A stretch of DNA of 32,798 nucleotides from an uncultured Anaerolineales bacterium (lineage in GTDB: Bacteria; Chloroflexota; Anaerolineae; Epilineales; JAHCIE01). Shown here piece by piece: positions 23,506-23,741 of the stretch. Below the pieces are notes generated by a model. The model was given only the letters and a program-made list of their open reading frames with translations. It ran no database searches and was not told the DNA's origin. Position 1 is the stretch's first letter; every line of letters begins with the position of its first letter. The stretch covers positions 1 through 32,798 of the forward strand of contig CAZJJF010000004.1 in assembly GCA_964546245.1 (NCBI GenBank), read 5' to 3'. A program made the translations under genes and the position numbers.

Positions 23506-23539
23506 AAAAAGGCCCCCTCCCGCAAGTCAGGGGAGGGGG
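23506..23539 (-). terminator. Rho-independent terminator
   Basis: The minus-strand RNA reads CCCCCUCCC-CUGACUUGC-GGGAGGGGG-CC-UUUUU. The 9-bp stem is perfect, the loop is 9 nt, and a U5 tract follows. Confidence 0.75.
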
Positions 23540-23715
23540 ATAGGGGAGGATGGGGCTGTACCAGGCTTGACAGCCCCCTTAGTTTGGGGCCAGAGCGCCT
23601 TGGCGACAGCCAAAGCGCCCCGTCTTGCTCCGCGCTACGCCGCAACAGGTTCACGACCCTTATAACAACATTGACGCTTGAGAACTCCGTCAGCCTGCAA
23701 CGCCTCGACTCTACA
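23506..23715 (-). ncRNA. Candidate sigma-54-dependent small RNA (~210 nt)
   Basis: It is bounded by a consensus sigma-54 promoter (predicted TSS ~23715) and the intrinsic terminator. There are two internal stem-loops, at 23595-23618 and 23552-23577. One needs a G-U pair that exists only on the minus-strand RNA. A C-rich tract, AUCCUCCCCUAUCCCCC, is also present. No convincing ORF or RBS was found. Confidence 0.45.
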
Positions 23716-23725
23716 CCCTGTTTAG

Positions 23726-23741
23726 AGCAAGAAGCGTGCCA
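23726..23741 (-). promoter_or_regulatory. Sigma-54 (-24/-12) promoter TGGCACGCTTCTTGCT
   Basis: The reverse complement of 23726-23741 is TGGCACG-CTTC-TTGCT. This matches TGGCACG-N4-TTGCW at all conserved positions, with correct GG/GC spacing. It is intergenic, 60 nt after the rpoN stop. Confidence 0.65.

Follow-up and report, generated by a model that had tools for sequence, protein, structure and literature searches.

A sigma-54 promoter-terminator unit downstream of rpoN in an uncultured Anaerolineales bacterium as the probable shell of a deleted glsB gene

Downstream of rpoN in an uncultured Anaerolineales bacterium (assembly GCA_964546245.1, contig CAZJJF010000004.1, positions 1 to 32,798, hereinafter the window), a consensus sigma-54 promoter and an intrinsic terminator bracket about 210 nt of DNA. 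The original prediction, made from the letters alone, took this unit for a sigma-54-dependent small RNA (sRNA) gene. Does the locus encode a regulatory RNA, or did it come by the appearance of an sRNA gene in another way? Comparison with the corresponding loci of relatives points to the second answer. With a probability of roughly three in four, the unit is the shell of a sigma-54-dependent stress-protein gene of the glsB/yeaQ type (Transgly_assoc), and the ~210-nt RNA made from this shell would most likely be a gene relic or by-product, not a conserved regulatory RNA. Coordinates are window positions, and all elements of the unit lie on the minus strand.

The unit downstream of rpoN

The promoter, TGGCACGCTTCTTGCT (23741-23726), fits TGGCACG-N4-TTGCW at 16/16 specified positions, with the -24 GG (23740-23739) and the -12 GC (23728-23727) exactly 10 nt apart, and the predicted transcription start lies at ~23715. 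As had been claimed, it is the only full match in the 32.8-kb window: on both strands there is a single match with 0 mismatches, against 0.03 expected, and 3 of 100 shuffled sequences yield one. When up to two mismatches are allowed, the six matches in the window equal the expectation of 6.2, i.e. there is no enrichment. The genome supplies both sigma-54 and a bacterial enhancer-binding protein (bEBP), with rpoN and the gene of an NtrC-type Sigma54_activat protein less than 4 kb upstream.

The predicted position of the promoter, just after the rpoN stop codon and a 10-bp hairpin, also holds. Specifically, the stop codon TAG (23803-23801) lies 59 nt ahead of the sigma-54 box, and the interval contains a GC-rich hairpin of 10 bp read from the sequence (23776-23751; arms GGCTGGCCTC/GAGGCCAGCC), which has no U tract and is probably the 3'-end or weak termination hairpin of rpoN. 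Hairpins of other sequence are found at the same place after rpoN in four related loci (L011, L013, L015 and L016). Conservation of the TGGCAC and TTGC boxes in relatives, which had been proposed as a check, was found. Orthologous boxes follow the hairpin in L015 (TGGCACGCTTCTTGCT) and L016 (TGGCACGCTTCTTGCA), both perfect, and in L011, where a decayed copy (TGGCACGCTTCTCGCC) is accompanied by a second, intact box. A 16-mer identical to TGGCACGCTTCTTGCT is present at three additional places in L015 and L016. Judged from these comparisons of sequence, the predicted promoter is genuine and evolutionarily conserved. A comparison by eye of the sequences ahead of 11 sigma-54 boxes, taken from different positions, brought out no shared activator-binding motif.

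At the far end of the unit, the predicted intrinsic terminator (23539-23506; -21 kcal/mol, z = -2.7) was confirmed. It consists of CCCCCTCCC (23539-23531), a 9-nt loop, GGGAGGGGG (23521-23513), CC and TTTTT (23510-23506), and its stem of 9 bp is all G/C bar one A:U pair. A consensus terminator scan, which caps the loop at 8 nt, missed it because of the 9-nt loop. No other canonical terminator separates the rpoN operon from vapBC, the toxin-antitoxin genes that come next.

Two hairpins precede the terminator. The first, HP1, had been drawn as a 9-bp stem-loop with one G-U pair; the hairpin is real, but it is actually a 14-bp helix (23622-23591) with three G-U pairs and the loop UGUC (-26.1 kcal/mol, z = -4.4), and 0 of 200 shuffled sequences fold equally well. 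The second, HP2, is the 8-bp stem-loop at 23577-23552 as described, with the 10-nt loop CAAGCCUGGU and an energy of -15 kcal/mol. The C-rich tract AUCCUCCCCUAUCCCCC (23551-23535) is present but not wholly unpaired, its last five C belonging to the 5' arm of the terminator stem. The whole 217-nt transcript folds with -101 kcal/mol (z = -2.7), and the opposite strand folds less favourably (z = -2.1).

The inventory of open reading frames (ORFs) and the judgement of poor coding potential were accurate. The transcript contains one sizeable ORF only, a 54-codon GTG frame, which is the old glsB frame described below; it is separated by 2 nt from a truncated Shine-Dalgarno sequence, and its stop codon (23495-23493) lies past the terminator. 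Since no usable ORF exists in the unit of this genome, its product would be a short non-coding RNA. With its own promoter, its own terminator and no translatable ORF, the unit fits the layout of an sRNA gene. A search of Rfam with the whole window returned 0 matches at the gathering threshold, and a search with the region at E up to 10 returned chance matches only (mir-1451, HOTTIP_3 and narK RNA), the best with E of 0.9-5.6.

A glsB gene at the same place in relatives

Homologues of RpoN, among them matches labelled Anaerolineae and Ardenticatenales, put the window in Chloroflexota. The closest other species, with an RpoN 86% identical to that of the window, is represented by five independent assemblies (L011, L012, L026, L027 and L028) that are at least 99.95% identical mutually. 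In L011, rpoN is followed, in this order, by a hairpin, the decayed box TGGCACGCTTCTCGCC (P1), a spacer of ~80 nt, the second box TGGCGCGCAACTTGCT (P2), a 75-nt leader with an AAGGAG site, a gene for 91 amino acids and a 3' untranslated region (UTR) with three hairpins. The 91-aa protein belongs to the GlsB/YeaQ/YmgE family (Transgly_assoc, PF04226, E = 1.7e-13).

A global alignment of the window with L011 places all parts in the same order. The rpoN hairpin and the promoter flank are 75-83% identical. The former glsB 5' leader (23715-23657) gives a 55-nt local alignment to the leader between P2 and glsB in L011, which ends at the AAGG of AAGGAG; 41 of 2000 shuffled sequences score as well. 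In the window itself, the Shine-Dalgarno sequence at the end of the leader is cut short (ATAAGG|G), which sets the deletion junction at ~23658/23657. Among the leaders compared, that of L011 P2 alone matches: the sequence downstream of P1 in L011 and the glsB leaders of L015 and L016 show no significant similarity to it.

Beyond the junction, the homology resumes near the end of the gene. The segment TCGTGAACCTGTTGCGGCG (23656-23638), which reads VVNLLRR, corresponds to TCGTCAACCTGTTCCGCCG of L011, IVNLFRR, at codons ~81-87 (blastn, 16/19 nt; 27 of 2000 shuffled sequences score as well), and is in frame with the 54-codon GTG ORF. The 3' stem-loop and terminator, AGGGGGCTGTCAAGCCTGGTACAGCCCC...CCCCCTCCC...GGGAGGGGGCCTTTTT, have a counterpart in L011 with 81% identity (E = 1e-15), and the whole glsB 3' UTR is 77% identical over ~140 nt. 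Compared with L011, the window lacks ~250 nt that hold the rest of the Shine-Dalgarno sequence, the start codon and the first 80 of 91 codons; ~88% of the coding sequence is lost, and with it the ability to make the protein. The remnant is too short to give a profile match to the GlsB family, and tblastn with GlsB finds no match in the 32.8-kb window, hence no intact copy there. The deletion is common to all 11 sampled genomes of the species, i.e. the window and 10 further contigs from different sequencing runs, which have an identical RpoN, are 99.7-99.8% identical to the window and show the same gene order and gap. The contigs of the species derive from runs SRR16998423, SRR29974356, SRR29974358, SRR34317602, SRR34317616, SRR34317625, SRR32555632, SRR36074541, SRR36074543 and SRR11809816.

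The original prediction had named a small protein gene at this place as the contrary case, and this is what relatives have, as glsB. The unit is thus not conserved as a non-coding one: the sister species has the 91-aa gene there, and L015 and L016 have perM and glsB. Of the proposed sRNA unit, the promoter, terminator and hairpins are real and conserved; its conservation as a non-coding gene is not, since the nearest relative holds a protein gene instead.

In L015 and L016, whose RpoN proteins are 72-73% identical to that of the window, the box after rpoN precedes a gene for a perM-like transporter of the AI-2E family; beyond it come one or more additional sigma-54 boxes and then glsB. In L031 and L032, two unrelated Chloroflexota glsB loci, consensus boxes are found 65-80 nt upstream of glsB, and in L032 an activator gene and rpoN neighbour glsB. 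Taken together, a consensus sigma-54 box is present 65-110 nt upstream of glsB in 5/5 Chloroflexota loci (L011, L015, L016, L031 and L032), 3 of which adjoin rpoN or an activator gene. glsB is thus a recurrent sigma-54 target, at all five loci, and the intact gene is taken as the ancestral state. The more distant L029 and L030 (RpoN 59-61% identical) have other genes downstream and no sigma-54 box after rpoN, which confines the arrangement to the closer clade. What emerges is a compact sigma-54 module in uncultured Chloroflexota, comprising a kinase, an activator, a response regulator and rpoN, followed by the likely targets perM and glsB, with glsB/yeaQ as a recurrent sigma-54 target in the phylum. 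Among the papers covered by a full-text search, none combines "sigma-54" with "transglycosylase-associated".

The following course of events would account for the locus. In this Chloroflexota lineage, the rpoN operon is followed by sigma-54-dependent targets, perM, glsB or both. The rpoN-proximal promoter would then have been joined to the glsB leader, probably by recombination of two near-identical tandem sigma-54 promoters. Since the leader of the window matches the P2 leader of L011 and not the sequence downstream of P1, the tandem promoters would have recombined in one event and the coding sequence been deleted in a separate one, perhaps in that order. The second event, a deletion of ~250 bp, would have removed glsB from the tail of its Shine-Dalgarno sequence through the start codon to codon 80. 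The promoter and the leader survive, followed by ~7 final codons and a 3' UTR that holds two hairpins and the terminator. Once the neighbouring activator is turned on, sigma-54 polymerase would start near 23715 and stop at 23506, yielding an untranslatable RNA of ~210 nt. The terminator would still be useful, ending transcription from both the rpoN operon and the sigma-54 promoter ahead of vapBC.

The three sister contigs that extend this far past glsB, L011 (2620-2658), L026 and L028, all end exactly 252 nt after the gene at GTGAAACGTGATGCGTGAAACGTGAGAA, which suggests a repeat that breaks the assembly.

Conservation of the shell and alternative explanations

At 206 fourfold-degenerate sites of rpoN, the window and L011 are 51% identical. 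The promoter and hairpins of the shell are 77-81% identical. HP2 shares 22/23 nt with L011, loop included; the terminator stems are identical and the terminator loops diverged. When the two sequences are folded independently, all three helices fall in the same alignment columns. Compensatory changes, which had been proposed as a check, are seen among the terminator and internal hairpins in the comparison with this closest relative, i.e. between two species. In HP1, both partners are altered in three pairs and a single partner in three more; one pair of HP2 brings the double changes to four, and 96.8% of the cells of the alignment are paired. With two sequences this covariation is not significant, as 35 of 500 shuffles match it. 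Within the species, the only variable sites of the gap across the 11 near-identical genomes are 23790 and 23712; diversity is too low to show constraint, with one single-nucleotide polymorphism (SNP) seen in the transcript (23712) and ~1 expected. The hairpins were clearly under selection while they served glsB.

Several points weigh against the shell of a deleted glsB gene as the full account. The promoter is still perfect, and the hairpins and terminator stems are nearly unchanged against a neutral identity of 51%. The orphaned P1 box of L011 has decayed at -12, and the box of the window is intact. A long-dead relic should have decayed, which leaves two possibilities: the deletion happened recently, or the RNA is still under selection. 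For a recent deletion, we estimate roughly that it falls within the most recent ~10-15% of the period since the two species diverged, because otherwise the ~41 stem positions would show some change. One reason why the terminator may stay under selection without an sRNA role is that it is the last canonical stop before vapBC, the rpoN hairpin having no U tract; the perfect promoter is left unexplained by this. In addition, the homologies of the leader and the coding remnant are individually weak (p ~0.02 and 0.014) and carry weight because their order and position are right. Finally, the homologous 3' UTR is found in one sister species only, so the direction of change rests on the outgroups (L015, L016, L031 and L032) and the residual codons.

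Next in likelihood after the glsB shell comes the explanation that the unit is a working trans-acting sRNA with a new function, the structured 3' UTR of glsB (HP1, HP2, C-rich tract and terminator) having been regulatory already in the ancestor and now being expressed on its own under sigma-54. It amounts to the model of the original prediction, with another origin. We consider this unlikely, though still to be reckoned with. It would account for a promoter that is perfect and the sole exact match in the window, for a 3' UTR that is 77-81% identical where neutral sites are at 51%, for an HP2 kept together with its 10-nt loop (22/23 nt) and for an HP1 helix that survives three double and three single changes. 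The better folding of the minus strand, with its strand-specific G-U pairs, would agree with it as well, and so would the finding of the unit in every one of the 11 genomes, with a single SNP (23712). However, the same conservation is explained equally well if selection acted on the terminator and 3' end of the mRNA as long as the gene existed and the deletion came recently; the covariation comes from two species only and is not significant (35/500 shuffles); and the one SNP matches the ~1 expected in 210 nt, so that the data from within the species show no constraint. Nor did GTDB representative genomes or JGI metagenomes yield further copies. Specifically, a scan with the HP2 pattern GGCTGTNNNGCCTGGTACAGCC gave three matches in the former and five in the latter, all in unrelated sequence (Pedobacter, Acidobacteriota and others); none is accompanied by the C tract or the terminator, indicating chance matches, and these scans brought in no relatives of intermediate distance.

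In the mechanism that had been proposed for the RNA, CCUCC would mask ribosome-binding sites as an anti-Shine-Dalgarno seed; at that place L011 has CCCUCU (CUUUCCCUCU), i.e. the seed is not kept. The lack of an Rfam family, the lack of a homologous non-coding unit, the unconserved CCUCC and the inclusion of half of the C tract in the terminator arm all argue against this mechanism. It is conceivable, at the same low odds as the sRNA with a new function, that the locus records the birth of an sRNA by loss of a coding sequence, with the glsB 3' UTR as a functional RNA element in the clade, expression of the ~210-nt RNA under sigma-54 and the neighbouring activator, and selection holding both promoter and structure. 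Should the RNA turn out to be functional, the untranslated regions of a protein gene would have given rise to an sRNA at a time that can be dated; a literature search on the pseudogene origin of sRNAs found nothing specific.

Much less probable is the explanation that the sigma-54 promoter now drives vapBC, with the relic as a long structured leader and the terminator as an attenuator. vapB (23428-23165, minus; MazE/AbrB-type antitoxin, Pfam MazE_antitoxin) does start 78 nt past the U tract on the same strand, and the interval from the promoter to vapB is otherwise gene-free; its partner is vapC (23181-22729, minus; PIN toxin, Pfam PIN). The terminator between the promoter and vapB is strong, however (9 bp, -21 kcal/mol, U5), and was inherited from glsB rather than evolved for vapBC. 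A plausible promoter of their own, the candidate TTGCGC-17-TAGAAT, was read by eye at ~23495-23467, ahead of an AGGAGG site. Type II toxin-antitoxin modules are normally autoregulated, which also speaks against a sigma-54 leader. According to the gene tables, vapBC are missing at this position in all relatives, indicating a lineage-specific insertion; they form a neighbouring module outside the unit.

Least credible is a small protein made from the 54-codon GTG or the 21-codon TTG frame: the ORFs are present and the GTG frame continues the old GlsB frame, but the GTG lies 2 nt from the truncated Shine-Dalgarno sequence, the frame crosses three stable hairpins, its stop codon follows the terminator so that the terminated transcript would have none, and its low-complexity product, from which both GlsB membrane helices are gone, matches no Pfam family above cut-off; on the Shine-Dalgarno spacing, the position of the stop and the absence of a family match, this candidate was rejected.

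Neighbouring elements and known systems

The adjacency of the unit to an activator locus, a further point of the original prediction, was borne out. Directly upstream on the minus strand lies a run of genes that begins with a histidine kinase with five GAF domains (31091-27315) and continues with an NtrC-type sigma-54 activator (27151-25733; Pfam Sigma54_activat and Response_reg), a single-domain response regulator (25717-25259) and rpoN, the last gene of the operon (25162-23801; 453 aa; Pfam Sigma54_AID, Sigma54_CBD and Sigma54_DBD). The gene tables show the same order of kinase, activator, response regulator and rpoN in relatives.

Further sigma-54-like boxes are found within this operon. 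One of them, TGGCATGGAAGTTGCC (25721-25706, minus), lies in the spacer between the activator gene and the response-regulator and rpoN genes, and orthologues (TGGCACAGGCTTTGCT and similar) are present in L015 (4424-4439), L016 (4423-4438), L012 (580-595) and L026 (698-713). In L015, the ATG straight after this box meets a stop, so the box sits in non-coding DNA. The called starts of the response regulator in the window (25717 or 25705) are probably too far upstream, and the true start may be a later ATG near 25664. Should the box be real, rpoN would be transcribed from a sigma-54 promoter, i.e. it would be positively autoregulated. Another conserved box, TGGCATAGATCCTGCT (25805-25790, minus), lies inside the coding sequence of the activator gene, near its 3' end, and has counterparts in L015 (4335), L016 (4334), L012 (496) and L013 (266); its conservation may simply mirror the protein sequence.

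The spacer between the kinase and activator genes of L016 (2918-2484, minus) and L015 (2924-2608, minus) contains the 16-mer TGGCACGCTTCTTGCT directed against the operon. The 300-430 nt beyond this reversed box have no ORF longer than 45 aa and are G/U-rich and C-poor. In L016, the motif GTTAG occurs 10 times against 0.76 expected (0 of 2000 shuffles reach it); L015 has six TTAG. Short GC hairpins frequently come after the motif. No unusual overall fold (z = +0.7) and no Rfam match were found for this spacer. The equivalent in the window (27179-27314, plus) retains a decayed box, TGGCCTGACTCTTGCT, and one GTTAGC only. The spacer could be a sigma-54-dependent RNA with GUUAG repeats or, read on the other strand, a C/A-rich spacer resembling a Rho site.

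The perM-like gene of L015 and L016 has a leader (6463-6615 and 6419-6570, respectively) of ~150-170 nt that would be driven by sigma-54 and is well conserved between both, e.g. GGGTTGGGTTGATACCCATTCA. Its last part, just ahead of the start codon, is a very strong C-rich/G-rich hairpin that lacks a U tract, and the leader may be cis-regulatory; Rfam gave 0 matches on L015 and L016, this leader included.

Elsewhere in the window, the differences from 99.8%-identical conspecifics are clustered, with 5-7 changes per 30-50 nt. Such tracts lie at 29502-29528, 29920-29946 and 19442-19490, in the gene of the GAF kinase and in a NAD-synthase-like gene, and look like small recombination tracts rather than scattered mutation.

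The only bacterial Rfam model that touches the region of the unit is the narK RNA motif (RF03032), the 5' end of which resembles a sigma-54 box (GGCACAgcucUUGCU). Membership was rejected: the match scores 14.3 bits against a gathering threshold of 43.2 (E = 5.6), and it is the promoter letters that match, with no structure.

Sigma-54- and bEBP-dependent sRNAs are known to be encoded near their activators, namely Qrr1-5 with LuxO, CrcZ with CbrB and GlmY with GlrR. The unit of the window shares with them a -24/-12 promoter near the locus of an NtrC-type activator, a short untranslatable transcript and an intrinsic terminator. These precedents, cited for the original prediction, resemble it in layout only: the unit has no sequence or structure relationship to them and no Rfam match, it is not conserved as a non-coding gene, and no conserved seed or protein-binding repeats were found in it.

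Other sRNAs, such as CpxQ, SroC, DapZ and MicL, derive from 3' UTRs and share the terminator of a protein gene. Similarly, the best-kept part of the unit is the structured glsB 3' UTR with its terminator and an invariant hairpin loop; unlike theirs, its parent coding sequence no longer exists.

The closest correspondence is with a transcribed pseudogene of the GlsB/YeaQ/YmgE family (PF04226) of stress membrane proteins. The unit occupies the same position after rpoN as the intact gene of the sister species, to which it is homologous in promoter region, leader, final codons, 3' UTR and terminator. What sets the unit apart is that ~88% of the coding sequence is gone and the regulatory shell is unusually intact. 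The case is a warning to those who predict sRNAs: a consensus promoter and a textbook terminator, together with stable strand-specific hairpins and no ORF, mimic an sRNA gene, and one comparison with a sister species unmasked the putative sRNA as a protein gene without its coding part. Read as the shell of a deleted glsB gene, the unit is one more transcribed gene remnant.

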